In this document: one piece after another, positions 591 to 64,000 of the stretch
Layout: the number at the start of each line of letters is the position of its first letter
Numbering within the stretch: the first letter of the stretch is position 1
Assembly (NCBI GenBank): GCA_964404025.1
Contig: CAYOIJ010000003.1
Location: 10,727-74,726, forward strand
DNA: 64,000 nucleotides
Reading direction: 5' to 3'
From: an uncultured Pseudomonadales bacterium
Lineage (GTDB): Bacteria; Patescibacteriota; Microgenomatia; UBA1400; PJMF01
Program-made: the position numbers and the translations under genes
Notes under the pieces: generated by a model
The model's input: only the letters and a program-made list of their open reading frames with translations
Database searches by the model: none
Told to the model about the DNA's origin: nothing

Positions 591-697
591 AGACTTTTTT
601 TAGCCTGCTTGAATTAATAGAGGCTTGACCATATAATAACACTGTTGTCGCAGAGACACCATTTTTAAAATTATTTAATCAAAAAGGATTCATCACT

Positions 698-2041
698 ATG
701 AAGACCTACATTCCCCAATTAAAAAAAACTGACCCAGAAATGGCTGATTTAATTAAAAAGGAGTGTAAGAGGCAGGAGGAAACATTGATGATGATTCCTT
801 CAGAAAATATTGCTTCAGAAGCAGTTCAACAAGCAGTTGGTACTTGCTTGGGAAATAAATACGCTGAGGGCTATCCCAATAAAAGATATTATCAGGGTCA
901 AAAATATGTTGACCTAATCGAAAACTTAACCAAAGAAAGAGCAGTTGAAGCCTTTGGTGTAGTTCATGCTAATGTTCAACCTCTCTCTGGTTCTCCAGCT
1001 AACTTAGCTGTTTATTTGGGACTACTAAAACCTGGAGACACCATTTTGGGTTTAGATCTGTCACACGGTGGACACCTAACTCATGGCTCTAAGGTTTCAA
1101 CTTCTGGCATCTACTACAATTCAGTAGCTTACACTCTGAATAAAGAAGGCAAAATGGATTATGAGGCAATTGAAAAATTAGCCATTAAACATAAGCCTCA
1201 AATTATTGTAGCTGGTATTACTGCTTATCCATTAAAAGTTAACTGGGCTAAATTTGCCAAAGTTGCCGATAAAGTTGGTGCCTATTTGATGGCTGACGTT
1301 GCTCATTTGGCTGGATTGATTGTTTCTGGAGCTTATCCTTCACCCGCGCCACACGTGCATGTGATTACCACCACCACTCATAAAACTCTTCGTGGGCCAA
1401 GAGGCGCCATGATTATGGTTACTAAGAAAGGCATAAAGAAAAATCCTGATTTACCAAAGATTATTGATAGTGCGGTTTTCCCTAGACTACAAGGTGGTCC
1501 TCATATCAATACTATTGCTGGTATTGGCGTTGCCCTAAAAGAGGCCATGTCTCCCCGTTTCAAAAAATATGGAGAACAGGTAATTAAAAATAGCCAAGTT
1601 TTAGCCAAAGAATTAAAAAGCAAGGGATTTCATTTGGTGGCTGGAGGAAGCAATACTCATCTTATCTTAATTGATTTAAAAAATAAGGGAGTAATTGGTA
1701 ATTTAGCGGCAGAAGCATTAGAAGCAGCCAACATCGTACTCAATCGCAACAGTGTGCCTTTCGACACCAATCCACCTTTTTATCCATCTGGCATCAGAAT
1801 GGGTACACCAGGCTTAACTAGCAGAGGAATGAAAGAAGCACAAATGAGCAAAATTGCCAACTGGATTAGTGAAATAATTGAAGACATTGCTAGAATTCAA
1901 AAAGAAGAAAATATTACTTTTGCCCAAGTAAAAAAGAGCTCAGTCCGTAAAAAACTCATTGCCTCTTCCAAAAAAATTAAAGCAGTTCAAAAACAAGTAA
2001 TTCAACTTTGTAAAAAATTTCCTGTCCTGGGCGAATATTAA
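698..2041 (+). CDS. glyA: serine hydroxymethyltransferase
   Basis: The PLP-lysine region VITTTTHKTLRGPRGAMI and SHMT-like sequence are present throughout. It has a ~30-aa Lys-rich C-terminal extension. Confidence 0.92.
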   Translation: MKTYIPQLKKTDPEMADLIKKECKRQEETLMMIPSENIASEAVQQAVGTCLGNKYAEGYPNKRYYQGQKYVDLIENLTKERAVEAFGVVHANVQPLSGSPANLAVYLGLLKPGDTILGLDLSHGGHLTHGSKVSTSGIYYNSVAYTLNKEGKMDYEAIEKLAIKHKPQIIVAGITAYPLKVNWAKFAKVADKVGAYLMADVAHLAGLIVSGAYPSPAPHVHVITTTTHKTLRGPRGAMIMVTKKGIKKNPDLPKIIDSAVFPRLQGGPHINTIAGIGVALKEAMSPRFKKYGEQVIKNSQVLAKELKSKGFHLVAGGSNTHLILIDLKNKGVIGNLAAEALEAANIVLNRNSVPFDTNPPFYPSGIRMGTPGLTSRGMKEAQMSKIANWISEIIEDIARIQKEENITFAQVKKSSVRKKLIASSKKIKAVQKQVIQLCKKFPVLGEY

Positions 2042-2085
2042 ATTAATTAATAATTAAAAACCTCTAATAAATAGAAAGGGTTTTA

Positions 2086-3717
2086 ATGAAATCGGATATT
2101 GAAATTGCTCAAGCAGCTAAACTTAAGCCAATTAAAGAAATTGCAAAATCAATTGCCATTGATGAAAAATATTTAGAATATTATGGCAGTACAAAAGCCA
2201 AAATTAGCTTAGATATTTTAAAAAAAATTGGTCAAAAAAAAGATGGCAAATTAGTCTTAGTTACTGCCATGACTCCCACTCCTGCTGGTGAAGGCAAAAC
2301 TACAACCACTGTAGGTTTGGGGCAAGCATTATGGAGTTTGGGTAAAAAATCAATGATTTGCTTGCGCGAACCTTCTCTTGGTCCAATTTTTGGTATTAAG
2401 GGTGGAGCAGCTGGTGGAGGTCATGCTCAAGTTTTACCCATGGAAGACATTAATCTTCATTTTACTGGTGATCTACATGCTGTCGGTGCAGCTAATAACT
2501 TATTAGCTGCTTTAATTGACAACCATATTCATCACGGCAATAGTCTCGAAATTGATCCACGCAAAATTACTTGGAGGCGCTGTGTCGACATGAGCGATCG
2601 TAGTCTGAGATCAATTGTGATAGCTTTGGGTTCAGCTAATGGCTTAGTTAGAGAAGACGGTTATGATATCACTGTTGCTTCAGAAGTAATGGCTGTTCTT
2701 TGTTTAGCAAAAGACATTAAAGATTTAAAAAAGCGTCTAGAAAAGATGGTTGTTGCCACTAATACTAAAGGTGAACCAATAACTGCCAAAGATTTAAAAG
2801 CTGCCGGAGCAATGACAGTTTTACTCAAGGATGCAATTAAACCCAACCTTGTACAAACTTTAGAGGGATCACCAGCTTTTATTCATGGCGGCCCATTTGC
2901 TAATATTGCTCATGGCTGCAACTCTTTAATTGCTACTAAAACAGCTCTAAAATTAGCGGATATCGTAGTCACTGAGGCTGGCTTCGGTGCTGACTTAGGT
3001 GTTGAAAAATTCCTAGACATTAAATGTCGGATTGGTAAACTCAAACCAAATGCCGTAGTTTTAGTTAGCACTATTCGAGCACTAAAACATCATGGTCAAG
3101 GCGAATTGAAACCTGGCCTAGCTAACCTCGGCAAACACATTGAAAACATCAAAAAATTTGGTTTACCACTAGTAGTAGCTGTTAATAAGTTTAGTACTGA
3201 TACCCCACAGGAAATTAAACTAATTAAACAATATTGTGAAGAACGCGGTACCAAGGCCATTATGTCTGATGTCTGGGCTAAGGGTGCAAAGGGTGGTCAA
3301 GATTTAGCCAAAGAAGTTTTACAGCTAGTTCAACATAAAAATAACTTTAGTTATATCTATAATCCCAAAAAAGGCCTTAAAAACTCAGTGGAAGAAATAG
3401 TGAAAAAAGTTTATGGAGGAGATGGAGTAATTTGGAGTGCTGCTGCTCGCAGAGCAATAAGAAGATTTGAAAAATGGAATATCACTGATTTGCCAATTTG
3501 TATGGCCAAGACTCAGTCTTCAATTTCAGATAATCCTAAATTGCTAGGTAGACCAGAAAACTTTAAAATCAAAGTGAGGCAAATTCGTCTCAGCGCTGGT
3601 GCTGGTTTCTTTGTAGTAATTGCTGGCAGCATTATGACTATGCCAGGCTTACCTAAACAACCTGCCTCAGACAATATCGATATTAATGATCAAGACCTTA
3701 TCGTGGGTTTGTTTTAG
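2086..3717 (+). CDS. fhs: formate--tetrahydrofolate ligase
   Basis: The P-loop [16 protein letters not shown] and FTHFS-family sequence run the full length. Confidence 0.92.
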
Positions 3718-3802
3718 TTAGTTGGCTGCTACAAATAAACTAAAAAATTATTAGTTATTTTAAAACTTCTCAATTAAAATAAGAGAAGTCTGGAGTAAAC
3801 TT

Positions 3803-4660
3803 ATGGCTCAGTTAATTGATAGTCGTGCCCTATCAAAAAAAATCCAAAATAAAATTAAAAAAGAAGTAGCTGCCTTAAATTTTAAACCAGGCTTAGCAGT
3901 GCTTTTAGTTGGCAGCGATCCAGCTTCCCAGGTTTATGTAAACAGCAAAGAAAAAGCTTGTAAAAAAGTTGGTTTCTATAGTGAAAAAATTATTTTAGAT
4001 AAAAATATAACACAGGATAAATTGTTAGTTGAAATTAAAAAGCTAAACAATAATCCAAAAATCCACGCTATTTTAGTTCAATTGCCACTACCCAAGCATT
4101 TAGACGAAAAAATCATAATTGATAATATTGACCCGCACAAAGATGTTGATGTTTTTCATCCCTATAATGTTGGTGAACTCTGCTTACAAAAACGCTTACC
4201 CAAACTCAACGACTTACTAGCTCCCTGCACTCCCAAAGGGATCATGAGAATGTTAGAAGAATATAAAATTGATTTAGAAGGTAAAAAAGCGGTGATCATT
4301 GGTCGCAGTAACCTTGTTGGTAAACCTATTGCGCTTATGCTCTTGGCTAGCAACGCCACAGTAGAGATTTGTCATTCCAAAACAAAGAATTTGACTGAAA
4401 CTAGTGCCCAAGCCGATATTGTTATTGCTGCCTTAGGCCAAGCTAATTTTCTTAAGAAAAACATGGTTAAAAAAGGAGCCATAGTGATTGATGTTGGCAT
4501 CAATCGTACTGATCAAGGCTTAACTGGTGATGTTGATTTTACTGAAGTTGAAAAAATTGCCAAATATATCACTCCAGTTCCTGGAGGAGTAGGGCCAATG
4601 ACTATTGCTTGTCTGTTAGAAAACACCCTTTTGCTGGCCAAAAAATACCGCAAGAAATAA
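3803..4660 (+). CDS. folD: bifunctional methylenetetrahydrofolate dehydrogenase / methenyl-THF cyclohydrolase
   Basis: FolD motifs are present: the YVNSKEKAC region, the GRSNLVGKP NADP-binding site and PVPGGVGPMT. Confidence 0.92.
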   Translation: MAQLIDSRALSKKIQNKIKKEVAALNFKPGLAVLLVGSDPASQVYVNSKEKACKKVGFYSEKIILDKNITQDKLLVEIKKLNNNPKIHAILVQLPLPKHLDEKIIIDNIDPHKDVDVFHPYNVGELCLQKRLPKLNDLLAPCTPKGIMRMLEEYKIDLEGKKAVIIGRSNLVGKPIALMLLASNATVEICHSKTKNLTETSAQADIVIAALGQANFLKKNMVKKGAIVIDVGINRTDQGLTGDVDFTEVEKIAKYITPVPGGVGPMTIACLLENTLLLAKKYRKK

Positions 4661-37260: not shown

Positions 37261-38217
37261 CTAGTCTTTTATTAATTGTGCTGTTACTACCCCGCGACGT
37301 AAAGTAGTCCCCTCAGGAGTACAAGTCACTAACTTCAACTGACGCACATCGTAGCGTTGAGCTAAAATAAAGGTGTCATCTGGCTTAACCTCTGTCTTGC
37401 TTTGCACAATGTAAGTATATTTAACATTATCATGAGTTAAATATATTTTTTCTCCTCTTTCCAGCAACATAATTTTGCTAAAAATAGAAGTATAGCGACG
37501 AGGGTTATTTTCACTAGGATTGTAGAATTGACGCAAAACAGAATGGCCAAAAAGCACTGGTGAACCCAATTGTCCTGGTAGACCAGTACCAGGATAATGA
37601 ATTAAGCTCTGGTTAAGATCTGTGCCTCCAACCCTTACTTTCGCATTAGTAATATTTAAACTAGGAATATCTAAAGTATATTCAATAAATTCACTTTTAT
37701 TTAATTCTGGAACATCGAGCTCACTACTAAACCAATTACTTAAGTCAGTAAAATCAAGAGCCTGATCTAAAATGACTGGTCCATTTTCAGCACTCTTATT
37801 TGCCTGGCTTTCTTCAAGATCGACCTGAGCTTGAGCGGAAATAAGAGGCGTACTAAGTAATAATTGGGAGTGTGGAACCGGGGACAATAAGGCTAATTTT
37901 TCTTGTTTATTCCAGGGTAAATAATATTCTATCAGAGGCCAAAGCGCAGATAAGGCTAGAACTAAGCCAAAAGCTATTAATGCCAAAGGTAATAAAGTTG
38001 CCCCAAATCTAATTCTTCTTGGCAAACGTCGCCAAAAATTTAATTTAATTTGTTTGTCCAAAACCTGTTCTTCTTTACGACTAACAACGTCTTGTTTTAA
38101 AAAATAATTAACTTTTTTATTCAAATCTTGAATAGCCACCCCTTCCTTGAGAGCTTGACGGTAAAGCTTTAGAATTTGCTTTTTTTGCAGAGATGGTTGG
38201 GAATCTTTTTTGGCCAT
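37261..38217 (-). CDS. sortase-family transpeptidase (membrane-anchored)
   Basis: It has one TM helix. The catalytic His is in LFGHSVL, the catalytic Cys is in the TLxTC-like LKLVTCTPEG, and Arg follows (RRGVV). It lies 5 nt downstream of the 747-aa gene. Confidence 0.75.
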   Translation of the reverse strand: MAKKDSQPSLQKKQILKLYRQALKEGVAIQDLNKKVNYFLKQDVVSRKEEQVLDKQIKLNFWRRLPRRIRFGATLLPLALIAFGLVLALSALWPLIEYYLPWNKQEKLALLSPVPHSQLLLSTPLISAQAQVDLEESQANKSAENGPVILDQALDFTDLSNWFSSELDVPELNKSEFIEYTLDIPSLNITNAKVRVGGTDLNQSLIHYPGTGLPGQLGSPVLFGHSVLRQFYNPSENNPRRYTSIFSKIMLLERGEKIYLTHDNVKYTYIVQSKTEVKPDDTFILAQRYDVRQLKLVTCTPEGTTLRRGVVTAQLIKD

Positions 38218-38222
38218 AGGAA

Positions 38223-40466
38223 TTAATTAATAACAAAATTAAAACGAGCAGTGTTTTTTGGTAACTTTTGCACTAGCTTGGACAAAAATTCTGGTTGATA
38301 TACTATTTCTGCTTTGCTTATTAATTCTTGGTCTTCTAGATTATTTTCTGCTTCTTCAATGCTCTTGCCAACTAATAAGTCTGTCAACGACTCTTCATCA
38401 ATATTTGCTCTAGATTTAGCTGATAACTCTGTACTTAAAATTAAACGATTACTGTCATCTTCAGTCGGAACAGCTCGATCGCTTAGTAGTGATGGCTCTT
38501 CATCAACAAATTCATAATTTTCTGGCAGATCCATAAGCAAAACTGCTCGCGCCAACTGTTTCAAGTCACTAGATAAATATTTGACGGCCTCAACTTCTAA
38601 ATTCATTTTTAAAGAAAGAGTTTCCACCTCGTCTCCCTCTTCGTGATCATATTCAAAAAAAGTAATACGACTCTTATCACTTGCTACAAAATAAACACCA
38701 TCTCTAGACTCTTCAGCAAACTCATCTTTAGCAATTTCGTTTAAACTTGTTCTTAATTGACTCAGTAAATTTTCTAAATCCTCTTTGGAAACCACTCTCA
38801 CCTCTCTACTAGAACCACCAGAAAAATTTTCAAGAGCAGTAGCTGAATAGGTATCTTCACTAAAATCTGCAACTTTTAATTTACTATCTTTTTCAATATT
38901 GGCGTCTGCTCCTATGTCTTTAGCAACCACCATCGCTTCTTTACTCCCATAATTCATTCCAGCACCACCCTCTTCTTCTTCAGCAGCAGCTACTATTACT
39001 TCTTCCTCAAATTCAAACAAAACACCCTCGTGCTCCAAAGTTGTACTAGCAGCAAAAGTTTTTTCACTAGAAGTCTTATTAAATAATTTAATCTTTCCCT
39101 TAGCTTTTTCTCCTACTAAACTAATACCAGTTGTACTTAAGCTGTCTTCACCGCTAATTTCTTTTTTTACTAATGACGCTTTGAGTAAATTTTTATTATA
39201 ATCAGATTCTGCTAGTTGAGGATCAAGAATGATATCGAGATTTTTTTGCAGTATTTGTTCGTCCGCTTTAATTCTGACTGTTATATTCGATAAGAAAAAA
39301 CTAAAAATAAGTAGAATAATCGTTAGAGCTAATAGACCGCTGCTAACTCCAATTATTAATGATTTACGATTTTTTCTTAAAAAACGAGCTAAAGGAGTCA
39401 TTTTTTTTATTTTTTCTGGGTTTTTTGTTAATACGGGTTTAACAACTTGATGATTTACTTGATCGGGATTAAATTCTTTCAATTCTTCAGATTTAAAATC
39501 AGTGAATTGAGCTCTATTATTCTCTTCATCCGCCTTGACTTTATCAGAAGCGAAATCAATACCAAAACTACTAATTTTTTGCTCTTCACTCTTTACCTCA
39601 ACTTCATTTGCTAAATTATTTTCCAGATCAGTACCTTTTTCAACACCATGAACTATGCTTAAATCCTGATCAAGTTTAGATCTGAAGTCAGTTGATAGCA
39701 TATGACTGGCTGCTAAACTTAGAGACTTAATTAAAAAGTCTATTTCTAAAACTACAAATTGTGGTGCTTGTAAAAAACCACTGACTTTTGTCCAATCAAA
39801 GGCTTGCAGTTGTGACTGCTCCTTTTTTAAAGATTTTTGACTAAGATTTAATGAGGTCAGAAAAAGTTTGTTGGGAAAATATTTGCCCTGTTCTCCTAGC
39901 TCTTGGCTAACTCTTGCTAAACCCTCTTGTAAATCGTCAGTCAATTTTGCTGATCTACCAACTCGAAGATTAAGTAATAATTGACCATGTTTAATCAAAA
40001 TTAAATCAAAATCTCGCTCACGCAAATAGATAGTGAGGGAAGAGTCACGAGGATCATTAATAATCCGAGATCTATGAATTCCCTCACTTACACTCATTTG
40101 TCCCAAAGCAGATAGGCTTAAACTTTCTGATAATTCTTGAACTATGACTTTTTTACTATCTAATAATTCACCATCTTTCAACCAAGACTCATCAAAAATA
40201 AAAACACAATCTGCTACTTCGTCTGCTAATAATCCCAAGTCTTGTAGTGACTGGTCGAGTTGAATTAACAAATCTTGACGATCAAAATAAGTTTTAATTG
40301 CAGAATACTCTTTAATTTCTTGCTTCTTATTAACTAAAGCGCTCTGCAACTCTTGATCACTTAAAATGATAGAAATAAATAATTCCTCATGATTAAGGTT
40401 CTCAGTTAGATCATGATGCTTCTTTTCTTTTTTTCTCTGAGTAAATTTTTTCAATAAATTGGGCAT
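38223..40466 (-). CDS. uncharacterised 747-aa bitopic membrane protein. It has a ~370-aa cytoplasmic N-domain, one TM helix, and a ~350-aa acidic extracytoplasmic C-domain. It is the first gene of the sortase operon.
   Basis: The single hydrophobic segment is LIIGVSSGLLALTIILLIFSFFL at ~aa 372-394, after a basic stretch KNRKS. The N-domain has a weak actin-fold/PilM-FtsA-like feel (LILIKHGQLLLNLRVGRSAKLTDDLQEGLARV), but no recognisable motif could be confirmed by eye. Confidence 0.5.
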   Translation of the reverse strand: MPNLLKKFTQRKKEKKHHDLTENLNHEELFISIILSDQELQSALVNKKQEIKEYSAIKTYFDRQDLLIQLDQSLQDLGLLADEVADCVFIFDESWLKDGELLDSKKVIVQELSESLSLSALGQMSVSEGIHRSRIINDPRDSSLTIYLRERDFDLILIKHGQLLLNLRVGRSAKLTDDLQEGLARVSQELGEQGKYFPNKLFLTSLNLSQKSLKKEQSQLQAFDWTKVSGFLQAPQFVVLEIDFLIKSLSLAASHMLSTDFRSKLDQDLSIVHGVEKGTDLENNLANEVEVKSEEQKISSFGIDFASDKVKADEENNRAQFTDFKSEELKEFNPDQVNHQVVKPVLTKNPEKIKKMTPLARFLRKNRKSLIIGVSSGLLALTIILLIFSFFLSNITVRIKADEQILQKNLDIILDPQLAESDYNKNLLKASLVKKEISGEDSLSTTGISLVGEKAKGKIKLFNKTSSEKTFAASTTLEHEGVLFEFEEEVIVAAAEEEEGGAGMNYGSKEAMVVAKDIGADANIEKDSKLKVADFSEDTYSATALENFSGGSSREVRVVSKEDLENLLSQLRTSLNEIAKDEFAEESRDGVYFVASDKSRITFFEYDHEEGDEVETLSLKMNLEVEAVKYLSSDLKQLARAVLLMDLPENYEFVDEEPSLLSDRAVPTEDDSNRLILSTELSAKSRANIDEESLTDLLVGKSIEEAENNLEDQELISKAEIVYQPEFLSKLVQKLPKNTARFNFVIN

Positions 40467-40558
40467 ATTTTTTGAATAGTAAAAGACTGGGTTAAATTAA
40501 ACCCTCACTTATATTAAAGCAGAGTTTCAGTTAATTTTGAAGAACTGAGTGCTTGTTA

Positions 40559-45745: not shown

Positions 45746-46231
45746 TTAGTTTTTGAATTTAAGGCTTAGACCTAAGCCAAGCGCTAATATCCCTAAAGCA
45801 AAAATTATAATTGTATTCTCTAGAGCACCTGATTCTGGCAGAGTTGTTTTCGCAGAGGGGGTACTCATGCTAGCCACTTCTGACACATTCACGACTAAAT
45901 CTAGTGATTCGCCAGCAGAACTAACTACCAAATTATTGTTCCCGTAAGCAACATCGCTAAAATTAACCCCCCAACTACCCAAAGAATCAGCGGCAGTATT
46001 ATTGTTCAAATCCCCAAGCGCTACTCGCACCTCAGCTGAAGGAGAAGCAGTTCCTCTGACGGTAAAGCTTGTTAGGGTAGTATCATAAGTTTTCACTGTA
46101 GATCCCAAACCCACAATTGAATCGTTACCTCCTATGGCATCAATCGTAAGAGCGCTGGCAAACACTGGTTTAATCAAAACAAGAGATAAAAACAAAAAAA
46201 ATAATAGGGCAATTTTTGTGATTTTTTTCAT
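45746..46231 (-). CDS. small secreted surface protein with a C-terminal LPESG sortase sorting signal (paralog A)
   Basis: Signal peptide MKKITKIALLFFLFLSLVLIKPVFA. The C-terminus is TTLPESG-ALENTIIIFALGILALGLGLSL-KFKN: motif, hydrophobic segment, then a basic tail. Confidence 0.7.
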   Translation of the reverse strand: MKKITKIALLFFLFLSLVLIKPVFASALTIDAIGGNDSIVGLGSTVKTYDTTLTSFTVRGTASPSAEVRVALGDLNNNTAADSLGSWGVNFSDVAYGNNNLVVSSAGESLDLVVNVSEVASMSTPSAKTTLPESGALENTIIIFALGILALGLGLSLKFKN

Positions 46232-46298: not shown

Positions 46299-48548
46299 TT
46301 AGAAACTTTTTGTACCTAAATACTCCTGTATTTTGGCTCTAAAAACCTCTCTGGCTTTACTGCCCTGAGCAGGACCCACAAAACCAGCTTCTTCTAATTG
46401 GTCTAAAATACGAGCTGCTCGAGCATAACCTACAGATAAATGACGTTGAATAGCACTAGAAGAAGCACTGTCACTAGTACTAAATAACTGCGCTGCTTCA
46501 TCAAATCGTTCATCTCGATCAGCTTCTCCTTCTACACTAACGCTAACCGTGCCGCCAACTCTGCTAACCTGATATTTATTAGTAATTTCCTCCTCATAAT
46601 TTGGTTTTTTACCTCTAGACTTAAGAAAATCAATCAATTGATCAATTTCTTTAGCATCAACATAAGTGCCTTGAATACGCATTGGTTTAGCTCGATCGGG
46701 AGATAAATAAAGCATGTCTCCTTTACCCAAAAGCTTTTCTGCTCCAGGGGTGTCTAAAATTACTCGACTATCGGTCACACTAGAAACATTAAAAGCAATT
46801 CTGGTGGGCATATTAGCTTTAATTAGACCAGTGATCACATCAACAGAAGGTCGCTGAGTAGCTAAAACCAGATGAATTCCCACTGCTCTAGCCATTTGAG
46901 CAATCCTGGTAACATTATCCTCCACCTCTTTGGGAGCAAAAAGCATAATGTCTGCCATTTCATCAATAACAATCACAATATTTGGCATAGTAGCCAAACC
47001 AGCTAATTCATTGTAATCTTGAATGCTTCTGACTCCCACATCTTCAAGCATTTTATAACGCTTGGACATTAGCTCCGAAGCCCACTTAAGAGCTGATACC
47101 ACTTTGTCGGGATCAACTATAACTGGCGTTAATAAATGAGGAATGTCCTTGTATTTGGTTAGCTCTACGCGCTTAGGATCAACCAAAATTAGCTTTACTT
47201 CTTCTGGTGTAGCACGGAATAAAATAGAACACAAAAATGAGTTAACACAAACAGACTTGCCTGAACCAGTGGCCCCAGCAATGAGTAAATGAGGCATTTC
47301 AGCAATATCTGCCACAATTGGTTTACCCGCTACATCAACTCCTAAACTAACTGCTAGTTTTGAGGGATGTTTTTTCACCACCGGTGAAGATAACATTGTT
47401 TTTAGGGGCACAATTTCAGCACTATGATTAGGCACCTCCACCCCAACTAGATTACGACCAGGAATTGGCGCTTCAATTCTTACTTGTCCGGTAGGTGCTG
47501 CTAGAGCTAAGGCTAAATCAGTTGATAGAGCCGTAATTTTTGATAAACGAGTTCCCTTACTAATGTCTAAGGCATACTGAGTAACTGCTGGACCGGGGTT
47601 ATATTCTGCAACCTTGGCATTAATACCAAAAGAATCTAGAGTATTTTCAATAACTTGAGCATTTGCCTTAACATCCCCACGATCGGCTTTTGCTCCTCTC
47701 TCCACAGACAATAAAGACAAGGGAGGATAATCCCAAACCATTGGTAGAGATGAAGCATTGAGGGCTTCTTCTCCTTCCAAACCACCTGAAGGATTTTTAG
47801 CAAGCTGACTTTCTGCTTTAGTCAAAACAGCAGTACTGCTAGTTTGATCAAGCTCTATTTCTTCATTAAAATCCGCTCCTTTTTTGAGGGTTTTCTTGCC
47901 AAAAGCTAATTTAGGAATTGAAAAGTGGCGAGATTTTTTTATTTCCCTATCAGTTACATCCTCATCAACTGACTTAAGACCTTTTTTGGCTAATTTTGCT
48001 TTGCGACGGCTAGCAAACACTTTACTTAAACCATTAACTAAATCGCTTAAAGAACTCTGGGAAAGAATCAAAAAACCAATCAGAGCTAAAGAAGAAAAGA
48101 CTATGTAAGCGCCTATCACGCTAATTAATCTTGATAAATTATTGAAAATATTAATTCCAATTTCGCCAGAACGAGATACGCCCATCACCCCAATCATCAT
48201 TAAAATCACTCCAAGTAAAATTGTTGGCTTAGACCAAGCATGCTTACTACGAATCATCACCAAGCCTGAAGCAATAAAAACAAATGGTAAAAATAACATG
48301 GATAAACCAAGTTTATTTGCTAAAAAATTGTTAAGAGCTATTAGCCACTGTCCTTGCCCACTAAAAGAAACCAAGACCAAACCACCAAACATAATTAGCA
48401 AAACTGCTATTATCGAATAGGTGGTATCAGCTCGCATTTTTAAACGAATTGCTTTACGCTTTTTGCGACGAGACTTTCTTTTTGCCATATTTTGATCAAA
48501 ATAGTTAACTATATTTAAAAGCAAAACTCTTGAAACTGCAAGCAGCAA
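46299..48548 (-). CDS. ftsK: DNA translocase FtsK/SpoIIIE. The start is probably the internal Met at MAKRKSRRKK.
   Basis: It has an N-terminal multi-TM domain, an acidic linker, an ATPase domain with Walker A LLIAGATGSGKS, and a C-terminal gamma winged-helix domain (...LFSTSDSASSSAIQRHLSVGYARAARILDQLEEAGFVGP). Confidence 0.9.
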   Translation of the reverse strand: MLLAVSRVLLLNIVNYFDQNMAKRKSRRKKRKAIRLKMRADTTYSIIAVLLIMFGGLVLVSFSGQGQWLIALNNFLANKLGLSMLFLPFVFIASGLVMIRSKHAWSKPTILLGVILMMIGVMGVSRSGEIGINIFNNLSRLISVIGAYIVFSSLALIGFLILSQSSLSDLVNGLSKVFASRRKAKLAKKGLKSVDEDVTDREIKKSRHFSIPKLAFGKKTLKKGADFNEEIELDQTSSTAVLTKAESQLAKNPSGGLEGEEALNASSLPMVWDYPPLSLLSVERGAKADRGDVKANAQVIENTLDSFGINAKVAEYNPGPAVTQYALDISKGTRLSKITALSTDLALALAAPTGQVRIEAPIPGRNLVGVEVPNHSAEIVPLKTMLSSPVVKKHPSKLAVSLGVDVAGKPIVADIAEMPHLLIAGATGSGKSVCVNSFLCSILFRATPEEVKLILVDPKRVELTKYKDIPHLLTPVIVDPDKVVSALKWASELMSKRYKMLEDVGVRSIQDYNELAGLATMPNIVIVIDEMADIMLFAPKEVEDNVTRIAQMARAVGIHLVLATQRPSVDVITGLIKANMPTRIAFNVSSVTDSRVILDTPGAEKLLGKGDMLYLSPDRAKPMRIQGTYVDAKEIDQLIDFLKSRGKKPNYEEEITNKYQVSRVGGTVSVSVEGEADRDERFDEAAQLFSTSDSASSSAIQRHLSVGYARAARILDQLEEAGFVGPAQGSKAREVFRAKIQEYLGTKSF

Positions 48549-48576: not shown

Positions 48577-50241
48577 CTAAAAATCCCAAATTACCGGCAA
48601 AATCATAGGTTCACGACGAATAATTTTGAATAGACGACGAGCTAAACGCTTTTCTAAATGGTGTTTTAATTCTTCGTCTTTAACATTTCTTCCCAACCCC
48701 TTAATGATGGTTACCGTTTCTTTTTCAATATATTTAATTACTTCATCAGCTTCTTTCATAAAAACAAAACCTCGTGAAATAACCTGCATTTTATTGAAAT
48801 CAAACCGTCTTTTAAATCTTGGCAACAATAAAACAATAATTCCAGCTTTAGATAAATTTAAACGATCAGATAAAACCACTGGCCCAACATCACCTATGCC
48901 AAAACCATCAATAGTTTTTGCAGATAGGGATATTTCTCGAGCAACTGATGCACCTTTTTGATCAATTTGTAAAATTTCTCCACTCTTGGGTATTAAAATT
49001 TGCCAATCTTTATAACCTAAGGGTCTAGCCACCGTTTTTTTGAATAAAGTGCGATGACGATCAGCACCTCCAATCGGCATAGTTAATTTAGGCTTGAGTA
49101 GTTTCAACATTACTTCTTGCTCACCACGACTAGCATGGCCAGAGCGATGAATATCTGGACGAATATCCGGATAAACAACCTCTACATCATCAGCTGCTAA
49201 TTGATCTATAGCTGCGTAATAGGGAATTTCATTGCCTGGAATCACATCTGCTGAAAAAATAACTTTATCTTGATTGGTGATTTGCACTATTTGATGATCA
49301 CCATAAACAGCTCTAACTAGAGAAGAGCCCTCTTGTCCCTGACTGCCAGCAATAATTATACAAAGCTTGTCATCTGCTAATTGGTTAATTTTTTTCTTAT
49401 CTAAAAGTAAGCCTTTGGGAATGTTCAAGCTTTTGGATTGAGTGGCACTTCTTACATTTTGCTCTACACTTCGACCTACAAAAACAACCTTTCGGCCTAA
49501 TTTAATACAAGCATCAAGTGTTTGTTGAATACGATGCAAATGAGAACTCATTAAAGTGACTAAGATTTTTCCCTTAACATCTTTCATTTCCCTAAGCAAA
49601 GCAGGACCAACCGTTGATTCAGATGGAGTCCAATCGTCTCTTTCTACCCTTAGACAATCTAAAGAGGCCATTAACAAATCTCCATCTTGACCAATTTTTT
49701 CTATGAAATCCATATCACTAAGTCGTCCGTCAACGGGATGTTTATCTAATTTAAAATCACTACCATGATAAATTTTACCTACAGGAGTCTCTAGTAAAAT
49801 ATGTTTTGAGTCAGGCACTGAATGAGTAACAGCAATTAATTGAAATTTAAAAAATTGACTTAAATTTAATTGTTGTCGATCATTTAAAACTTGAATTTTT
49901 CTATCAAGTTTTTTATCTAATAAGCGATCATGAGCAAATTGAGCTGTCAGTGGTGAAGCATAAATAGGAAAATCCGGTAAATTTGGTAATAAATAAGGCA
50001 AAGCCCCAATGTGATCATCATGACCATGACTCAAAATCATACCAACTATTTTTGCTCCTGATTCTAGTTGATTTAACAAATAACTTATATCTGGAATGAG
50101 AGCATCGACTCCGGGCATATACATGTCAGGAAAACCAATGCCACAATCGATTAATAAAATTTCCTGTTGATACTGGTATAAATAAAGATTTTGGGTAACT
50201 CGACCCATACCTCCTAAAGCTAAAAAGTTAAGTTTTGACAT
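48577..50241 (-). CDS. rnj: ribonuclease J (metallo-beta-lactamase / beta-CASP)
   Basis: The HGHDDHIGALPYL metal-binding motif is present, with 554 aa of RNase J-family sequence. Confidence 0.88.
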   Translation of the reverse strand: MSKLNFLALGGMGRVTQNLYLYQYQQEILLIDCGIGFPDMYMPGVDALIPDISYLLNQLESGAKIVGMILSHGHDDHIGALPYLLPNLPDFPIYASPLTAQFAHDRLLDKKLDRKIQVLNDRQQLNLSQFFKFQLIAVTHSVPDSKHILLETPVGKIYHGSDFKLDKHPVDGRLSDMDFIEKIGQDGDLLMASLDCLRVERDDWTPSESTVGPALLREMKDVKGKILVTLMSSHLHRIQQTLDACIKLGRKVVFVGRSVEQNVRSATQSKSLNIPKGLLLDKKKINQLADDKLCIIIAGSQGQEGSSLVRAVYGDHQIVQITNQDKVIFSADVIPGNEIPYYAAIDQLAADDVEVVYPDIRPDIHRSGHASRGEQEVMLKLLKPKLTMPIGGADRHRTLFKKTVARPLGYKDWQILIPKSGEILQIDQKGASVAREISLSAKTIDGFGIGDVGPVVLSDRLNLSKAGIIVLLLPRFKRRFDFNKMQVISRGFVFMKEADEVIKYIEKETVTIIKGLGRNVKDEELKHHLEKRLARRLFKIIRREPMILPVIWDF

Positions 50242-50243
50242 AT

Positions 50244-50903
50244 TTAAAATAATTCCTCTCTCAATTGCGCTTTTAATTTCAAAGTCTCTTGTTGTGAATC
50301 TATCCAGCTTATAATTTTTTTAATTTTCTTGAAATCCTCAATAAATAGTTTTTTTACTTTAACAGACCTTAGGGCTGCTGCTGGATGATACATTGGTAAA
50401 ATAAACAAATCTTGATCCTGCCATCTTAACCTATGTAAGCGACCATGTATTTGTGAAATTTTAACATCTTCTAAAAATTTAGCCATACTAAAACGCCCCA
50501 AGGTAACAATTAATTTGGGTTTGATTAGTTCAATCTCCTTATCTAAAAAAGGTTTAAAAGCTAAAATTTCTTTAGGTAAAGGGTCTCGATTATTTGGTGG
50601 ACGTACTTTAATAATATTTGTGATAAAAACTGTTTCAGTGGGACAATTAACTTCTAAAAGAGTTTTACGTAACAATTGACCAGAACGACCAACAAAAGGA
50701 CGTCTTTCTAAGGTTTCATGATAACCAGGAGCCTCACCAATTAACATAATGTCTGCGCTTTGCTTTCCTTCACCATAAACTACATCCTCAGCTCGATTAA
50801 CTAGAGGAAGCGTTTTTGCAGTTTCTTCAATCAGAGATTCTAATTTAGATAAAGTTTTAAGTTCAATTAATAGTTTCTCCACTGATAAATCAGTCTTTGG
50901 CAT
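50244..50903 (-). CDS. uracil-DNA glycosylase, family 4
   Basis: GEAPGYHE and the FVGRSGQLL motif are present. Confidence 0.8.
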   Translation of the reverse strand: MPKTDLSVEKLLIELKTLSKLESLIEETAKTLPLVNRAEDVVYGEGKQSADIMLIGEAPGYHETLERRPFVGRSGQLLRKTLLEVNCPTETVFITNIIKVRPPNNRDPLPKEILAFKPFLDKEIELIKPKLIVTLGRFSMAKFLEDVKISQIHGRLHRLRWQDQDLFILPMYHPAAALRSVKVKKLFIEDFKKIKKIISWIDSQQETLKLKAQLREELF

Positions 50904-50922: not shown

Positions 50923-51987
50923 CTAATAGGTGGGTAGAAAAATTTTGACATTATCTGGCCTAATAATCACTTCTTCAAAACCACGCTCTACAATAATTCG
51001 TGCTGCTTTACGCACCGCACCCTTAAGAGTGCGCTGCAGCGTTCTTACTCCAGCATCAAAACCCAAAGGACGCACTAAGGTTGGCCAAATTGCTTCATCA
51101 ATTTTGAATTGACTTTCTTTCAAACCAGCCTCTTTGATAATGCTTGGCAAGATATACTTTTTAGCAATTACTATCTTTTCTTCATCGCTATAAGATGGCA
51201 TATCAATCCGTTCCATACGATCAATTACTGCGGTTGCAATGCGTCGAGTGTTATTACAAGTAGCAATGAAAATTGCTTGGCTCAAATTAACTGGGTAATT
51301 AATGTAATTATCTACAAAAGCATGATTTTGAGCTGGATCTAACAGCTCTACTAAAACCCCCATAATATCATTATTGGCTTCATCAGCGGCTCGATCAATT
51401 TCGTCAAGCAAAATCACAGGATTCATTGTTTTAGCTTCACACAAACCCTGTATCACTGCTCCGGGTTGAGCTTCTAAAATCAGTCGCGATTCACCACGCA
51501 GTTCTTTAGCAGATACCATGCCGCCAATGGGAATGCGCACTAATTGACGCCCTAGCGCTTCTGCCAAAGAATAGGCAAAAGTAGTTTTTCCAGTGCCCAC
51601 TAGACCGACTAATAGTAAAATCGGTGCAGAGAATTCTTGGCTAGTAAAGTTTTGTTTTTGTAAATTAAGAATAGCTAAATATTCTAAAAAACGATCCTTA
51701 ACCTCTTTTAAACCATAATGATGTTTATCAAAAACTATTTTAGCCGCCTGAATATCTAGAGTGTCTTCACTTTTTTGAGCAAAAGGGATCTTAATTACCC
51801 AATCTAAATAACGAGAAACTTTGTCGTATTTTTCATCATAATTTCCCAATTTGACACTGCGCTCTAGAGAGCTTAATTCTTTTTTTAATTTTGATAAAAG
51901 CTCTTCTGGCAATTGAATTTGTTCAATTTTTGCTTTAAGCTCGTCAAGTTCTTGATTTAAAATTTCTTCAGAATTAATTTGAGACAT
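50923..51987 (-). CDS. Lon-like AAA+ ATPase. It has a Lon ATPase module but no LON N-domain and no S16 protease domain.
   Basis: It aligns by eye to the Lon region ...YLDWVIKIPF...DKHHYGLKEVKDRFLEYLA...GLVGTGKTTFAYSLAEALGRQLVRIPIGG...ILLDEIDR. The protein ends at 354 aa. Confidence 0.65.
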   Translation of the reverse strand: MSQINSEEILNQELDELKAKIEQIQLPEELLSKLKKELSSLERSVKLGNYDEKYDKVSRYLDWVIKIPFAQKSEDTLDIQAAKIVFDKHHYGLKEVKDRFLEYLAILNLQKQNFTSQEFSAPILLLVGLVGTGKTTFAYSLAEALGRQLVRIPIGGMVSAKELRGESRLILEAQPGAVIQGLCEAKTMNPVILLDEIDRAADEANNDIMGVLVELLDPAQNHAFVDNYINYPVNLSQAIFIATCNNTRRIATAVIDRMERIDMPSYSDEEKIVIAKKYILPSIIKEAGLKESQFKIDEAIWPTLVRPLGFDAGVRTLQRTLKGAVRKAARIIVERGFEEVIIRPDNVKIFLPTY

Positions 51988-51993
51988 AAAAAA

Positions 51994-52512
51994 CTAAAAT
52001 TGCTTTGCTTGAAGTGCGAAGCCCAAACCAATACTAAGCATAGCTAAAGCCAAGAATATAATAGTCGTAGTAGTTGAACCAGCTTGTGGCAAAGTTCCAT
52101 CCGAAGCACTGGCTATTGCTTCTGTTGATGCTGTTGACCCTGTTGCTTCAGTACTATCACCAATAGTTAAAACAAAATCTAGTGTTTCTGCTCCAGATTC
52201 TAAATTAAACTGATGCCTGCCCTCAGTTAATGATGACACCAAATTAGTCCAACCCCCCTCTGCATCAGCTGTCGCAGTTTGTGTTGAATCATCAATTAAA
52301 ATTGATACGGTGGCCGAAGGAGAAGCTAAACCTGTTAATTCAAATGTGCCACCAGAATAAGTGTAGTTCTTTAAACTGCCTCCTAGATCTAGTCCCGAGA
52401 CATCTATGGGTCCTAAGCCCGTAATCTTTAAAGAAGCAGCCGAAACTTTTTTGACAAAAAGCAAGGGAAAGAGAAGTAATAAAAGTACAGTGCTAATAAA
52501 AAATTTTTTCAT
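51994..52512 (-). CDS. small secreted surface protein with a C-terminal LPQAG sortase sorting signal (paralog B)
   Basis: Signal peptide MKKFFISTVLLLLLFPLLFVKKVSA. The C-terminus is GTLPQAG-STTTTIIFLALAMLSIGLGFAL-QAKQF. It shares blocks with paralog A (GLASPSATV / GTASPSAEV; ETLDFVL / ESLDLVV). Confidence 0.7.
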   Translation of the reverse strand: MKKFFISTVLLLLLFPLLFVKKVSAASLKITGLGPIDVSGLDLGGSLKNYTYSGGTFELTGLASPSATVSILIDDSTQTATADAEGGWTNLVSSLTEGRHQFNLESGAETLDFVLTIGDSTEATGSTASTEAIASASDGTLPQAGSTTTTIIFLALAMLSIGLGFALQAKQF

Positions 52513-55703: not shown

Positions 55704-56201
55704 TTAATTTTCAATAATTCCTCTTAGGAGAGCGTCCTCAAGAAGTAAATCTGATTCTGTGCTAACAACCACTTCAATAGGTAAAACCTCAGCAGGCACT
55801 GAAGCTGAACCAATAAAACCTGCCTTAGAATAAGTGAGCGTAAACACTTTTTTCTTAGTATCACCATCAATTTCTTTAAGCCAAACTGCAAAAGCCTCGC
55901 TGCTATCTGGCAAGTTAGCTGTTACTGTAAAGTTGAGCTTATCATCTACCAACTGATAACGAACTTCACCACTAGCTTCCCCAACAGCCATCATTTCAAC
56001 TGTCGCAAAATCAGCAGTCCCTCTAATAATACTTTCCTCTTCTTCTTGAGTTAGGGTTGTAATTTCCAAATCATTACTCAATAAACTATTCCCTTGCTCA
56101 GCCACTCTGTTAGAGTACCAGCGAAAAAACATAAAAACGACAAAAGCAAAAGCTAATAGTGGGAAAATATAAGGGACAACTTTTTTAAGTTTTTCTTGCA
56201 T
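55704..56201 (-). CDS. hypothetical membrane-anchored protein (N-terminal TM, acidic ectodomain)
   Basis: It has a single N-terminal hydrophobic segment, VVPYIFPLLAFAFVVFMFF, and no recognisable motif. Confidence 0.4.
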   Translation of the reverse strand: MQEKLKKVVPYIFPLLAFAFVVFMFFRWYSNRVAEQGNSLLSNDLEITTLTQEEEESIIRGTADFATVEMMAVGEASGEVRYQLVDDKLNFTVTANLPDSSEAFAVWLKEIDGDTKKKVFTLTYSKAGFIGSASVPAEVLPIEVVVSTESDLLLEDALLRGIIEN

Positions 56202-61023: not shown

Positions 61024-61851
61024 TTAGAGAGTTAATTCTTCAGCTATACGATTAAGCTCAATCAATCTGTCTCTTAGGGTGGTGCGCACAAAGTTTTGCA
61101 TGGCTGGCCAATCAAATTCTTGATCAGCTTGGCGAAATTGAACTAATTCTCGCCATAAAAAATTTCCTAAATAAAAACCCTTTGCCCCATTTTCCATTGC
61201 AATTCTAAAATTTTCTTTAAACTTTTCGTAACTTAAATTTTTTTGATTATCCCCACTTAATAACCAGGGAATATCTACTTCACTACTGATAGTAGCTGCT
61301 AATAGCGGATTGGAAACATTTTCTAAAACCAAAATATCTGTAAAAGAATGAACTTCGCTAATACTGCTTAAAAGAATTTCTTCATTATCAAAATTAGTAT
61401 TTAGCTTGAGCAAAAAATTAATTTTTAGGCTCTCACTATAATCTTTAATTTCAGCTAACAATTGTTTTTTTGATAAAGCTTGTTCTTCATGAGACTGATA
61501 GCTGAGTCCTAATTTTGCTAAGGCATAATTATTTTTAATCTCTAAAAGTGAAAAATTGGGAAAAAGCTGAGGAATATCCTGCGCTTCTACCAATTGGTGT
61601 TGTTCTAAGCGAACAAGTGCTCCTACATCACTAGGTTTATGAGCTAATAAAGGTAAGCTATAAATTGGATCTACAACTAGACCAGTTACCTCCTGAGATA
61701 ACTCAAGCAATAAAAGATAAATCTGTTCTAAAAAAGATAAATTGTCAGTTAAGCTTAAATCCAAAGATAGGGTTTCACTTAAAGATAAAACATCATCCAA
61801 GGCTAAGATACCAAATAATTGGCGCTGATTGCTAATTGCGGGCAACTGCAT
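61024..61851 (-). CDS. hypothetical protein, possibly an aldolase-like TIM barrel
   Basis: It is 275 aa. The GILALDD and VVDPIYSL segments are vaguely reminiscent of class I aldolase/DeoC-LacD proteins, but no motif was confirmed. Confidence 0.3.
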   Translation of the reverse strand: MQLPAISNQRQLFGILALDDVLSLSETLSLDLSLTDNLSFLEQIYLLLLELSQEVTGLVVDPIYSLPLLAHKPSDVGALVRLEQHQLVEAQDIPQLFPNFSLLEIKNNYALAKLGLSYQSHEEQALSKKQLLAEIKDYSESLKINFLLKLNTNFDNEEILLSSISEVHSFTDILVLENVSNPLLAATISSEVDIPWLLSGDNQKNLSYEKFKENFRIAMENGAKGFYLGNFLWRELVQFRQADQEFDWPAMQNFVRTTLRDRLIELNRIAEELTL

Positions 61852-61893
61852 CTTTTTAGTATAGCAAAAAAACCCTGGTTACGCTCAATTTAA

Positions 61894-64000
61894 TTAAGAA
61901 CGGCGCCTGTTGTTTTGATTATTATTCGAACGATAGTTGCGATTACTACTTCGACCCTGATCAAAACGTCTTTGACCTCCACCACGTCTTGAATTAGAAC
62001 GAGCTTCTTTTTGAGCGGCTTCTTCCTCTGGAGTGAGAGCTGTTAAAGCTACCTTACCATCTAGGCCTATTTCTTTAATACGTATCTTTAAATGATCACC
62101 TAGTTTAACTTTTTCATTAGCGTCCCGCACATAATCAGTAGACATATTAGATACATGAAGCAGACCATCTCGTCCTGGCAAATATTCAACAAAAGCACCG
62201 TAGTTTTCAACTCTAGTTACTTCGCCTTCAAATTCATCACCGACTTCTACTTCTCTAACTAGGCCATCTATCATTTCCAAAGCTTGATCTATTGCTTTTT
62301 GATCAGGAGAAGAAATATTAATAACGCCTTGTTTCTTTTCCTTATCTTCAACTACATTGACCTCTGCTCCAGTTTTTTCAATAATATCCTTAATGACACT
62401 ACCACCACTGCCAATCACTGTACCAATCTTTTCTGCAGGAATAACTAATTGAGATACTTTTGGCGCATATTGGCTTAATTCTTCTCGTGAGCTAGTAATA
62501 TTTTTAAGCATTTCTTGCATAATATGCATGCGACCCTTATGAGCTTGAGAGAGAGCTTTAACTAAAATATCTTTATCTATACCTTTTAGTTTAATATCCA
62601 TCTGAATAGCTGTAATTCCTTTTTCACTACCAGCTACTTTAAAGTCCATGTCACCGACGTGATCTTCTAAGCCCTGAATATCCGAGAGAATGACAAACTT
62701 ATCTTTACCGTCACTCATCAATCCCATAGCAATACCTGAAACAGGTCGCTTAAGAGCAACACCAGCTGCCATTAAAGACAAGGTGGAACCACAAACAGCA
62801 GCTTGAGAGGTTGAGCCATTAGAACTCATTATCTCAGTTACCACTCGAATCGCATAAGGAAATTCTTCTTGTGAGGGCAACATTGGTCTCAACGCTCTTT
62901 CAGCAAGGGCTCCGTGACCAATTTCTCGTCTCTTAGGATAAGCAATGCGTCCAGCTTCTCCAGAAGCATAGGGAGGCATGTTGTAATGGTGCATGTAATG
63001 TCTCACTCTCTCACCAGTAATATCTTCAACTGTTTGACCCAAAGAAGGATCTGCTAAAGTTACTACAGTCAAAGCTTGAGTTGCACCTCTTTTAAACATA
63101 GCGCTACCGTGAGCCCTAGGTAAAACATCAATTTCTGTCCAAATTTGTCTAATTTCATCAGTTTTTCGACCATCAGGACGAACTCCGTCTTCAAGAATCA
63201 TTCTTCGAGCTTCATCTTTTTCTAATTGATAAATGATATCTGCTACCATAGCAGCACTAACTTCTTTATCATCCTCTTTGGCCTGATCAGTTTTTTCAGC
63301 AACAATCTTTTCAATTAATTCGCTGATGCCAGAATCTTCTAGTTGTGCTTTCTTAAGCACAGCCTGATTAATTTCTGGACCATACTTTTGATCAATTTCT
63401 GACTTTAATTCGCTGATAAATGATTGTTCATCTTCGCTGATTTCCTCAGTCAAAACTGCTTTTTCTTTACCAATTTCTTTGGCAATCTTTTCAATTTCTC
63501 CACAAACTCCAGATAAAACTTCTTGAGCTTTAACTAAAGCATCGACAATAATTGACTCTTTAACCTCGTTTGCTCCAGCTTCTACCATCACAATTGAAGT
63601 TTTAGAAGCTGACACAATTAAATCAAGATCATTTTCTTCGATTTCGCTTTTTAGAGGGTTAAAGATAAATTGTTCTTTTGAACCATCCTTAGCTAAAGCT
63701 AATCTAGCTCCGGCAATGGGTCCATCAAAAGGAATTTCACTAATTTGTAGTGCTAAACCAGCAGACAATAAAGCCATCATGTCTGGCTCATTTTCACCAT
63801 CATAAGATAGGACTGTGCTGATTATTTGTACTTCATGTTTAATTCCATCTGGAAATAAAGGACGCATGGTGCGATCTATCACTCTAGCTCGCAAAATTGC
63901 ATCATCCGTAGGACGACCTTCTCTTTTTACCCAACGAGAACCTTTAATCATGCCACTTGAATAGAGTTTCTCCTCAAATTCAACTGACAAGGGAAAGTAA
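61894..64000 (-). CDS. pnp: polyribonucleotide nucleotidyltransferase (PNPase). The N-terminus runs off the window end.
   Basis: It has an RNase PH domain (REGRPTDDAILRARVIDRTMRPLFP), KH and S1 domains (GDEFEGEVTRVENYGAFVEY), and an Arg/Gly/Asn-rich C-terminal tail. The Met at 63990 is internal; the homologous N-terminus needs ~60 more residues. Confidence 0.9.
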   Translation of the reverse strand, partial: YFPLSVEFEEKLYSSGMIKGSRWVKREGRPTDDAILRARVIDRTMRPLFPDGIKHEVQIISTVLSYDGENEPDMMALLSAGLALQISEIPFDGPIAGARLALAKDGSKEQFIFNPLKSEIEENDLDLIVSASKTSIVMVEAGANEVKESIIVDALVKAQEVLSGVCGEIEKIAKEIGKEKAVLTEEISEDEQSFISELKSEIDQKYGPEINQAVLKKAQLEDSGISELIEKIVAEKTDQAKEDDKEVSAAMVADIIYQLEKDEARRMILEDGVRPDGRKTDEIRQIWTEIDVLPRAHGSAMFKRGATQALTVVTLADPSLGQTVEDITGERVRHYMHHYNMPPYASGEAGRIAYPKRREIGHGALAERALRPMLPSQEEFPYAIRVVTEIMSSNGSTSQAAVCGSTLSLMAAGVALKRPVSGIAMGLMSDGKDKFVILSDIQGLEDHVGDMDFKVAGSEKGITAIQMDIKLKGIDKDILVKALSQAHKGRMHIMQEMLKNITSSREELSQYAPKVSQLVIPAEKIGTVIGSGGSVIKDIIEKTGAEVNVVEDKEKKQGVINISSPDQKAIDQALEMIDGLVREVEVGDEFEGEVTRVENYGAFVEYLPGRDGLLHVSNMSTDYVRDANEKVKLGDHLKIRIKEIGLDGKVALTALTPEEEAAQKEARSNSRRGGGQRRFDQGRSSNRNYRSNNNQNNRRRS

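Follow-up and report, generated by a model that had tools for sequence, protein, structure and literature searches.

Lon is the textbook example of an AAA+ protease that carries its motor and its proteolytic domain on a single polypeptide. In an uncultured bacterium assigned by GTDB to the Patescibacteriota, a 64,000-nucleotide stretch of contig CAYOIJ010000003.1 (assembly GCA_964404025.1, positions 10,727 to 74,726 of the forward strand; hereafter the window) carries a gene whose 354-amino-acid (aa) product, here called Lon-AAA, resembles only the motor. A sequence-only reading of the window had left two choices for the product, either a standalone unfoldase or chaperone derived from Lon, or a Lon in decay. 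The locus thus raises the question whether this gene is a remnant or a conserved protein and, in the latter case, what a Lon motor does without its protease. Judged by sequence, Lon-AAA belongs to a conserved clade of AAA+ ATPases that descends from LonA and is restricted to Patescibacteria, a large group of tiny uncultured bacteria, and it is very probably an active ring.

Boundaries, domains and origin of Lon-AAA

The open reading frame (ORF) is closed on both sides. An in-frame TAG two codons 5′ of the ATG is the stop codon of the upstream gene, which encodes a 172-aa secreted surface protein with an LPQAG sorting signal; because this TAG ends the preceding gene, no N-domain can be hidden 5′ of the ORF. 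On the other side, a complete gene for a family-4 uracil-DNA glycosylase (UDG) begins 19 nt after the Lon-AAA stop codon. The possibility that correcting a sequencing error would uncover a downstream in-frame S16 protease domain, raised in the sequence-only reading, is therefore removed by the intact UDG gene. Promoter and terminator scans around the Lon-AAA gene found nothing better than shuffled sequence. The motifs quoted in the sequence-only reading, SRYLDWVIKIPF, HHYGLKEVKDRFLEYLA, GLVGTGKTT and ILLDEIDR, were all present in the protein. The features of the gene are the following.

50923..51987, minus strand: ORF of the predicted standalone LonA-derived AAA+ ATPase, ATG start, 354 aa, TAG stop at 50923-50925
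51643..51987, minus strand: helical pre-AAA region, residues 1-115, homologous to LonA ~246-350 (long-helix end and three-helix bundle)
51202..51633, minus strand: AAA+ alpha/beta (large) subdomain, residues 119-262, matched by Pfam PF00004 at residues 124-261
51580..51606, minus strand: Walker A, G128-L-V-G-T-G-K134-T-T, the same in 121/121 close homologues
51460..51498, minus strand: pore loop 1, R164-G-E-S-R-L-I170-L-E-A-Q-P-G, with I170 in the place of the gripping Tyr of LonA
51391..51411, minus strand: Walker B, L193-L-D195-E196-I-D-R199, with D195/E196 invariant
51358..51390, minus strand: pore loop 2 region, A200-A-D-E-A-N-N-D-I-M-G210, in the place of the LonA [W/F/Y]RGDP motif
51253..51255, minus strand: sensor-1 Asn245 (in ATCNNT), invariant across the clade
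51217..51219, minus strand: arginine finger Arg257 (in VIDRME), with D256-R257 invariant
50980..51201, minus strand: Lon-type alpha-helical lid (small AAA+ subdomain), residues 263-336, matched by PF22667 Lon_lid at residues 285-336
51043..51045, minus strand: sensor-2 Arg315 (in DAGVRTLQR), invariant
50926..50958, minus strand: C-terminal tail, P344-D-N-V-K-I-F-L-P-T-Y354, homologous to the LonA AAA-to-protease linker motif (NL..YLG...F/Y)

Pfam search of the 354-aa protein returned AAA (PF00004, residues 124-261) and Lon_lid (PF22667, residues 285-336) and no other Lon-related domain. Neither LON_substr_bdg nor Lon_C was matched, in agreement with the expected absence of the LON N-domain and the S16 domain. 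The earlier statement that the protein begins just before the AAA+ core had to be revised, as about 110 residues of the LonA helical pre-AAA region (LonA ~246-350) are kept. This region contains YLDW..IPF and HYGL.EVKDR.LEYLA, and could be aligned to residues 246-350 of Thermus thermophilus Lon and to Bacillus subtilis Lon. Its helices in an AlphaFold2 monomer model span residues 6-23, 28-46, 52-66, 79-89 and 94-113. The lid matches the isolated Lon alpha-domain structures 1x37 and 1qzm, and the protein ends on an aromatic residue, Y354.

All strong matches of Lon-AAA were to Lon, as had been proposed from its motifs, and the affinity is well above chance. The NCBIfam model TIGR00763 'lon' aligned over profile positions 252-568 of 795 with 313.9 bits (E 2.7e-93). 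This score is about half of the curated family cut-off of 608.05, as is to be expected with two of LonA's three domains absent; with NF008053 the score was 223.2 bits against a cut-off of 891. The best PDB sequence matches (E about 1e-70) were all LonA, from T. thermophilus, B. subtilis, Meiothermus, E. coli, Yersinia and human LONP1, and their alignments span LonA residues ~246-575. The top 50 Foldseek matches to the AlphaFold2 model (pLDDT 76, pTM 0.67) were LonA without exception, with template-modelling (TM) scores of 0.70-0.79. No LonB, LonC or RuvB family match was obtained in the Pfam, NCBIfam and PDB sequence searches. When the three Lon types were considered as possible parents, the comparisons pointed clearly to descent from LonA.

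Residues 12-351 of Lon-AAA can be aligned over their full length to LonA ~246-580 (E. coli Lon, B. subtilis LonA, T. thermophilus Lon and human LONP1) at about 35-41% identity. The fold is the same, and so are the Walker A Lys, the Walker B Asp-Glu, the sensor-1 Asn, the Arg finger and the sensor-2 Arg. In contrast to LonA, Lon-AAA has neither the LON substrate-binding domain (PF02190) nor the S16 Ser-Lys domain (PF05362 Lon_C), its Walker A reads GLVGTGKTT, the Tyr of pore loop 1 is replaced by Ile, and pore loop 2 has N.DIMG for [W/F/Y]RGDP. Its boundaries are nearly identical to those of the E. coli Lon 241-584 fragment (PDB 6n2i, 338 residues in the structure; TMt 0.76), and the engineered 'AAA-P' constructs of B. 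subtilis and Meiothermus Lon also start near residue 240. These fragments, however, are artificial truncations with canonical pore loops, whereas Lon-AAA is a natural conserved gene with rewritten loops.

Other AAA+ families were tried and rejected. A LonB origin does not fit, as the spacing between Walker A and Walker B is that of LonA, without an insertion, S16 is missing and no NCBIfam LonB model matched at E<=0.01. LonC was rejected on account of the intact Walker motifs and the absent S16 domain. Like Lon-AAA, both families are Lon relatives with altered domain sets and lack the LonA N-domain. LonB, however, keeps S16 and its AAA+ module is interrupted by a membrane anchor, and LonC keeps S16 with a degenerate ATPase, the reverse of Lon-AAA, in which the ATPase is intact and the protease absent. 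A RuvB-like or other AAA+ protein without Lon affinity, which the sequence-only reading had considered, was dismissed because RuvB_N (PF05496) was not matched at E<=0.01 and the strong sequence and fold matches were all to Lon.

The protease domain was sought with tblastn, with the C-terminal half of E. coli Lon serving as probe only. In the 64-kb window the probe was matched by its AAA+ part alone, at the ORF itself, and nothing S16-like appeared in any frame, which extends to the whole window the earlier statement that no protease-domain ORF flanks the gene. About 36 loci were examined in the same way: 13 from GTDB species representatives (L011-L022, L028), 13 from metagenomes (L091-L103) and 10 found by exact protein look-up (L001-L010). 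At none of them was an S16 domain found in the ORF or in the retrieved flanks (8-10 kb), nor was there an adjacent peptidase gene in flanks of up to 10 kb. As a positive control, the same probe detected S16 in the ORF at 131 of 133 canonical Lon loci; the remaining two were cut by contig ends.

Conservation of the clade and its pore loops

Close homologues were collected by a word-indexed search of 5.8 billion proteins, of which the best 120 matches were used. They were 66-92% identical to Lon-AAA; 93 were 352 aa long and nearly all others 351-355 aa. Hundreds of homologues of 351-354 aa occur in independent assemblies. The labelled close matches came from Woesebacteria, Pacebacteria or 'Patescibacteria group', to which the named members of the wider clade add Levybacteria, Shapirobacteria and Dojkabacteria. 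The metagenome-assembled genome records for L011, L013-L017 and L019 bear the titles 'uncultured Gammaproteobacteria' or 'Pseudomonadales bacterium' (TPA_asm) despite a Patescibacteria-type gene and synteny; these titles look like wrong taxonomic labels.

Distant relatives were sought by exhaustive search of 50%-identity representatives and with a hidden Markov model (HMM) of the family. About 19 further 50%-identity clusters were found in which the match runs to the protein's own C-terminus, none of them with Lon_C. These distant members are 39-52% identical to the window protein. With the family HMM the clade clusters scored 323-444 bits, whereas canonical Lon never scored above 299 bits. 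Some clade members are longer (up to 703 aa), their extensions being low-complexity, Q/P/S/N-rich and without a Pfam domain. Two of them, P0161 (548 aa) and P0152 (428 aa), were considered as protease-bearing relatives and rejected, since their C-terminal extensions are S/N/Q/P-rich sequence of this kind with no Pfam domain. The same is true of the N-terminal extensions of P0132, P0138, P0139 and P0140.

The residues required of an ATPase are retained throughout. K134, D195, E196, N245, R257 and R315 did not vary among 121 close homologues or among 15 diverse members of the clade, which answers for the arginine finger (R257) and both sensors (N245, R315) the check proposed in the sequence-only reading. 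Since the arginine finger acts in trans and has a meaning only within an oligomeric ring, its invariance suggests that the protein works as an ATP-hydrolysing oligomer. Walker A carries a clade signature, G[LV]xGxGKT, compared with GPPGVGKTS in LonA.

The pore loops, in contrast, depart from LonA. Canonical pore loop 1 reads RGHRRTY[IV]GAxPG, with the Tyr present in 88 of 90 canonical representatives. In the standalone clade the loop is RGxS[RK]xxx[DE]AEPG, and ten different residues take the place of the Tyr, among them Phe in roughly a third of cases. In the window protein this position is Ile (I170) in an L-I-L-E context, and a hydrophobic S-R-L-[LIV]-L is invariant in its sublineage. Pore loop 2 is changed from [W/F/Y]RGDP to ..[RN]xDIM[GA] in the clade (..N.DIMG in the window protein), the aromatic residue giving way to Ala, Ser or Thr. 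The loops are constant inside sublineages and differ between them, the opposite of the universal paddle of LonA. The C-terminal tail is also lineage-dependent. N346, I349, F350 and P352 are invariant in close homologues, and K348 and Y354 nearly so. Over the whole clade the tails of most sublineages end on an aromatic residue (..FLPxY, ..YLPQW, ..FVQAW, ..YVPAW), and other sublineages have ..LPDQGPLS, ..REYL or ..RDFK.

Neighbour-joining analysis of AAA+ modules recovered the standalone clade as monophyletic with moderate bootstrap support (62/100). The nearest full-length relatives are ordinary LonA proteins, and a Patescibacteria label is missing from all of them; those with a name come from Clostridiales, Megasphaera, Deinococcus, Cardiobacteriaceae and a mite. 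The canonical Lon lying nearest, P0232, was examined as a possible Patescibacteria Lon and rejected, its relatives being LonA of Bacilli and Erysipelotrichales.

The searches also returned Lons with tandem modules. P0121 (1113 aa, Candidatus Dependentiae), P0122-P0127 and others have two or three AAA+ plus lid modules before a single S16 domain. They are rare, mostly singleton clusters, and keep the pore-loop aromatic residue in most modules. We know of no description of such double- or triple-module architectures. An origin of Lon-AAA as a split-off extra ring of a multi-module Lon was rejected, because the tandem modules keep canonical motifs and lie farther from the clade than ordinary LonA does.

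In public records the proteins are named 'AAA family ATPase', 'ATP-dependent Lon protease', 'Lon protease' or 'hypothetical protein', and no curated NCBIfam family model covers standalone Lon-AAA proteins. The name 'Lon protease' is an annotation problem, being attached to proteins unable to be proteases. Full-text searches, with partial coverage of subscription journals, gave no paper that deals with a Lon lacking its protease or with the Lon of the Candidate Phyla Radiation, Patescibacteria or Microgenomates.

What the motor may do

The explanation towards which we lean, with some reserve, is an active protease-free ATPase ring serving as chaperone or remodeller without proteolysis. The clade has lost the N-terminal substrate-binding and the S16 protease domains, whereas the pre-AAA bundle is kept together with the ATPase core and lid. 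The protein would assemble into an ATP-hydrolysing ring acting non-proteolytically, as a chaperone-like unfoldase or as a remodeller of proteins or protein complexes. Substrates would be contacted through the non-aromatic, lineage-specific pore loops, in the window's lineage through the hydrophobic S-R-L-[LIV]-L. The gene is probably co-transcribed with the downstream UDG, RNase J and FtsK genes. A protease-independent chaperone role of Lon has long been discussed, mostly from active-site mutants, and proteolytically inactive Lon of yeast (Pim1) and of bacteria still behaves like a chaperone. A proteostasis context supporting a chaperone is seen in two lineages (L016, L018), in which a divergent groES-groEL lies beside Lon-AAA.

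Several points weigh against this explanation. Much of the LonA hexamer interface comes from the protease domain, so that a ring formed without it is an assumption. With the aromatic paddle lost, efficient processive threading of a polypeptide is disfavoured, and 'unfoldase' may be the wrong word. Finally, the steady neighbours of the gene are nucleic-acid enzymes (PNPase, RNase J, UDG, FtsK) and not chaperones. Of the first alternative in the sequence-only reading, the standalone form stands, given the conserved 351-354 aa length and the invariant ATPase residues, while the term 'unfoldase' is weakened, as both pore loops are systematically non-canonical.

The second alternative, a pseudogene remnant or a frameshifted full-length lon, could appeal to the bare absence of two of LonA's three domains. 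We consider it extremely improbable and rejected it because the 351-354 aa architecture is repeated in hundreds of independent assemblies and the catalytic residues, together with many other columns, are invariant; moreover, complete unrelated genes tightly flank the ORF on both sides, and the window holds nothing S16-like in any frame. An unlikely but more substantial rival is a split protease, in which the ATPase ring docks on a peptidase encoded elsewhere (a standalone S16 Lon_C, a ClpP/TepA-like or an HslV-like protein) with the C-terminal tail as docking element. This would rebuild an ATP-dependent protease in trans, like ClpX-ClpP or HslU-HslV. ClpX and HslU are likewise standalone single-ring AAA+ proteins related to Lon with no protease domain of their own. 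In favour of a split protease, Lon-AAA ends exactly where the LonA linker enters the protease domain, and its tail is conserved within lineages, usually with an aromatic end. Over the whole clade, however, the tail varies (the ..LPDQGPLS, ..REYL and ..RDFK sublineages), and it is more simply read as a remnant of the LonA NL..YLG...[F/Y] linker. ClpX and HslU, moreover, have an aromatic pore-loop-1 residue and defined docking elements (the IGF loop and the HslU C-terminus, respectively), whereas in Lon-AAA the canonical gripping motif is gone from the loops that would feed the protease. ClpP and HslV are encoded adjacently or always accompany their motors; for Lon-AAA no peptidase was found within 8-10 kb at the about 36 loci.

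Two further rivals keep the ring and assign it other partners. If the same genomes encoded a full-length LonA, the short protein could be its accessory subunit, joining mixed rings or stacking on LonA and so modulating it. Lons with two or three tandem AAA+ modules (P0121, P0122, P0124) show that stacked or multiplied modules are viable. The standalone clade, however, lies closer to ordinary LonA (mean distance 1.20) than to these modules (1.39), and its signature motifs are absent from all of them. The full-length Lons nearest to the clade lack a Patescibacteria label, as do all 67 canonical Lon loci retained from the GTDB scan, the latter being weak evidence. We regard such a subunit as very unlikely. 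Quite unlikely, in our view, is a function linked to nucleic acids. The ring would then work on complexes of protein with RNA or DNA, perhaps as a remodeller associated with PNPase and RNase J, or would bind DNA through the Lon lid. This idea draws on the gene cluster PNPase, Lon-AAA, (UDG), RNase J, FtsK, which has tight gaps and is kept down to about 42-50% identity of the ATPase, and on the known DNA binding of LonA (PDB 6n2i is titled 'DNA-binding ATP-dependent protease La'). Against it, no nucleic-acid-binding domain was gained, and the neighbours are not constant, L016 and L018 having groESL and L013 unrelated genes. In addition, pnpA, rnjB and ftsK/spoIIIE lie within about 20 kb of one another in B. 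subtilis as well, and much of the pnp ... rnj-ftsK order may be inherited synteny and not a sign of shared function.

An extension of the favoured non-proteolytic ring is that these Patescibacteria would be without any Lon protease, and that the protease-free motor with its re-invented substrate loops would be a core housekeeping factor. We hold this to be doubtful; if true, nature would have split the ATP-driven 'chaperone' activity of Lon from proteolysis. In its boldest version, the motor may remodel ribonucleoprotein or nucleoid complexes alongside the flanking RNA-decay enzymes PNPase and RNase J. A conserved Lon motor without the protease and the N-domain, and with its loops rewritten, amounts to a natural experiment on the Lon ATPase alone, and it points to a reorganised protein quality control in the reduced genomes of Patescibacteria.

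Neighbouring genes and other features of the window

The members of the conserved cluster in the window are the following.

50244..50903, minus strand: family-4 UDG (PF03167; TIGR00758 169 bits, above the cut-off)
48577..50241, minus strand: RNase J, which among the downstream genes is the one most widely conserved in the clade
46299..48548, minus strand: FtsK/SpoIIIE DNA translocase, after RNase J in the conserved cluster
61894..63999, minus strand: PNPase, upstream of Lon-AAA and running off the window end

In the window the interval between PNPase and Lon-AAA is ~10 kb and contains genes for SOD, Suf, RpiB, RPE, a LOG-like protein, PfkB and the surface protein. PNPase lies immediately 5′ of Lon-AAA in L008, L022, L092, L094, L095 and L102. 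RNase J followed by FtsK was found downstream, with or without UDG between, in L011, L012, L014, L015, L017, L019, L020 and L028, and also in L091-L094, L096-L099 and L102. Intergenic gaps in the cluster are often 1-40 nt, or the genes overlap. Elsewhere the surroundings are different. In L016 (7869-9865) and L018 (7784-9862) Lon-AAA is outside the PNPase/RNase J cluster, divergent and head to head with groES-groEL, an arrangement that may hint at shared stress regulation. In L013 its neighbours are unrelated genes.

The sequence-only reading had named the UDG and an LPxxG protein as the neighbours. Both are present, although the UDG is only part of the wider cluster. It was considered as a dedicated partner of Lon-AAA and rejected; because RNase J directly follows Lon-AAA without UDG in many lineages, UDG is an optional member of the cluster. 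UDG is directly downstream of Lon-AAA in L007, L021, L091, L097, L099, L100 and L102, even beside 42%-identical ATPases, and the stop and start codons sometimes overlap. The window UDG has the GEAPG and HPAA motifs and only one cysteine, and seems to be without the usual 4Fe-4S ligands.

The block from Lon-AAA to FtsK is bracketed by two paralogous small secreted proteins, encoded at 51994-52512 and 45746-46231, both on the minus strand (30% identity, E 7e-15). In both, a signal peptide is combined with an Ig-like central part, and an LPQAG or LPESG motif at the C-terminus precedes a hydrophobic anchor. They are likely sortase substrates, because a sortase gene (37261-38226, minus strand) is present in the same window. 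Three ORFs, all on the minus strand, had no Pfam or NCBIfam match at E<=1e-5: 38223-40496 (757 aa), immediately upstream of the sortase gene, 61024-61878 (284 aa) and 55704-56201 (165 aa). A one-carbon block at 629-4660, encoding serine hydroxymethyltransferase, formate-tetrahydrofolate ligase and FolD, is on the plus strand, opposite to most of the window.

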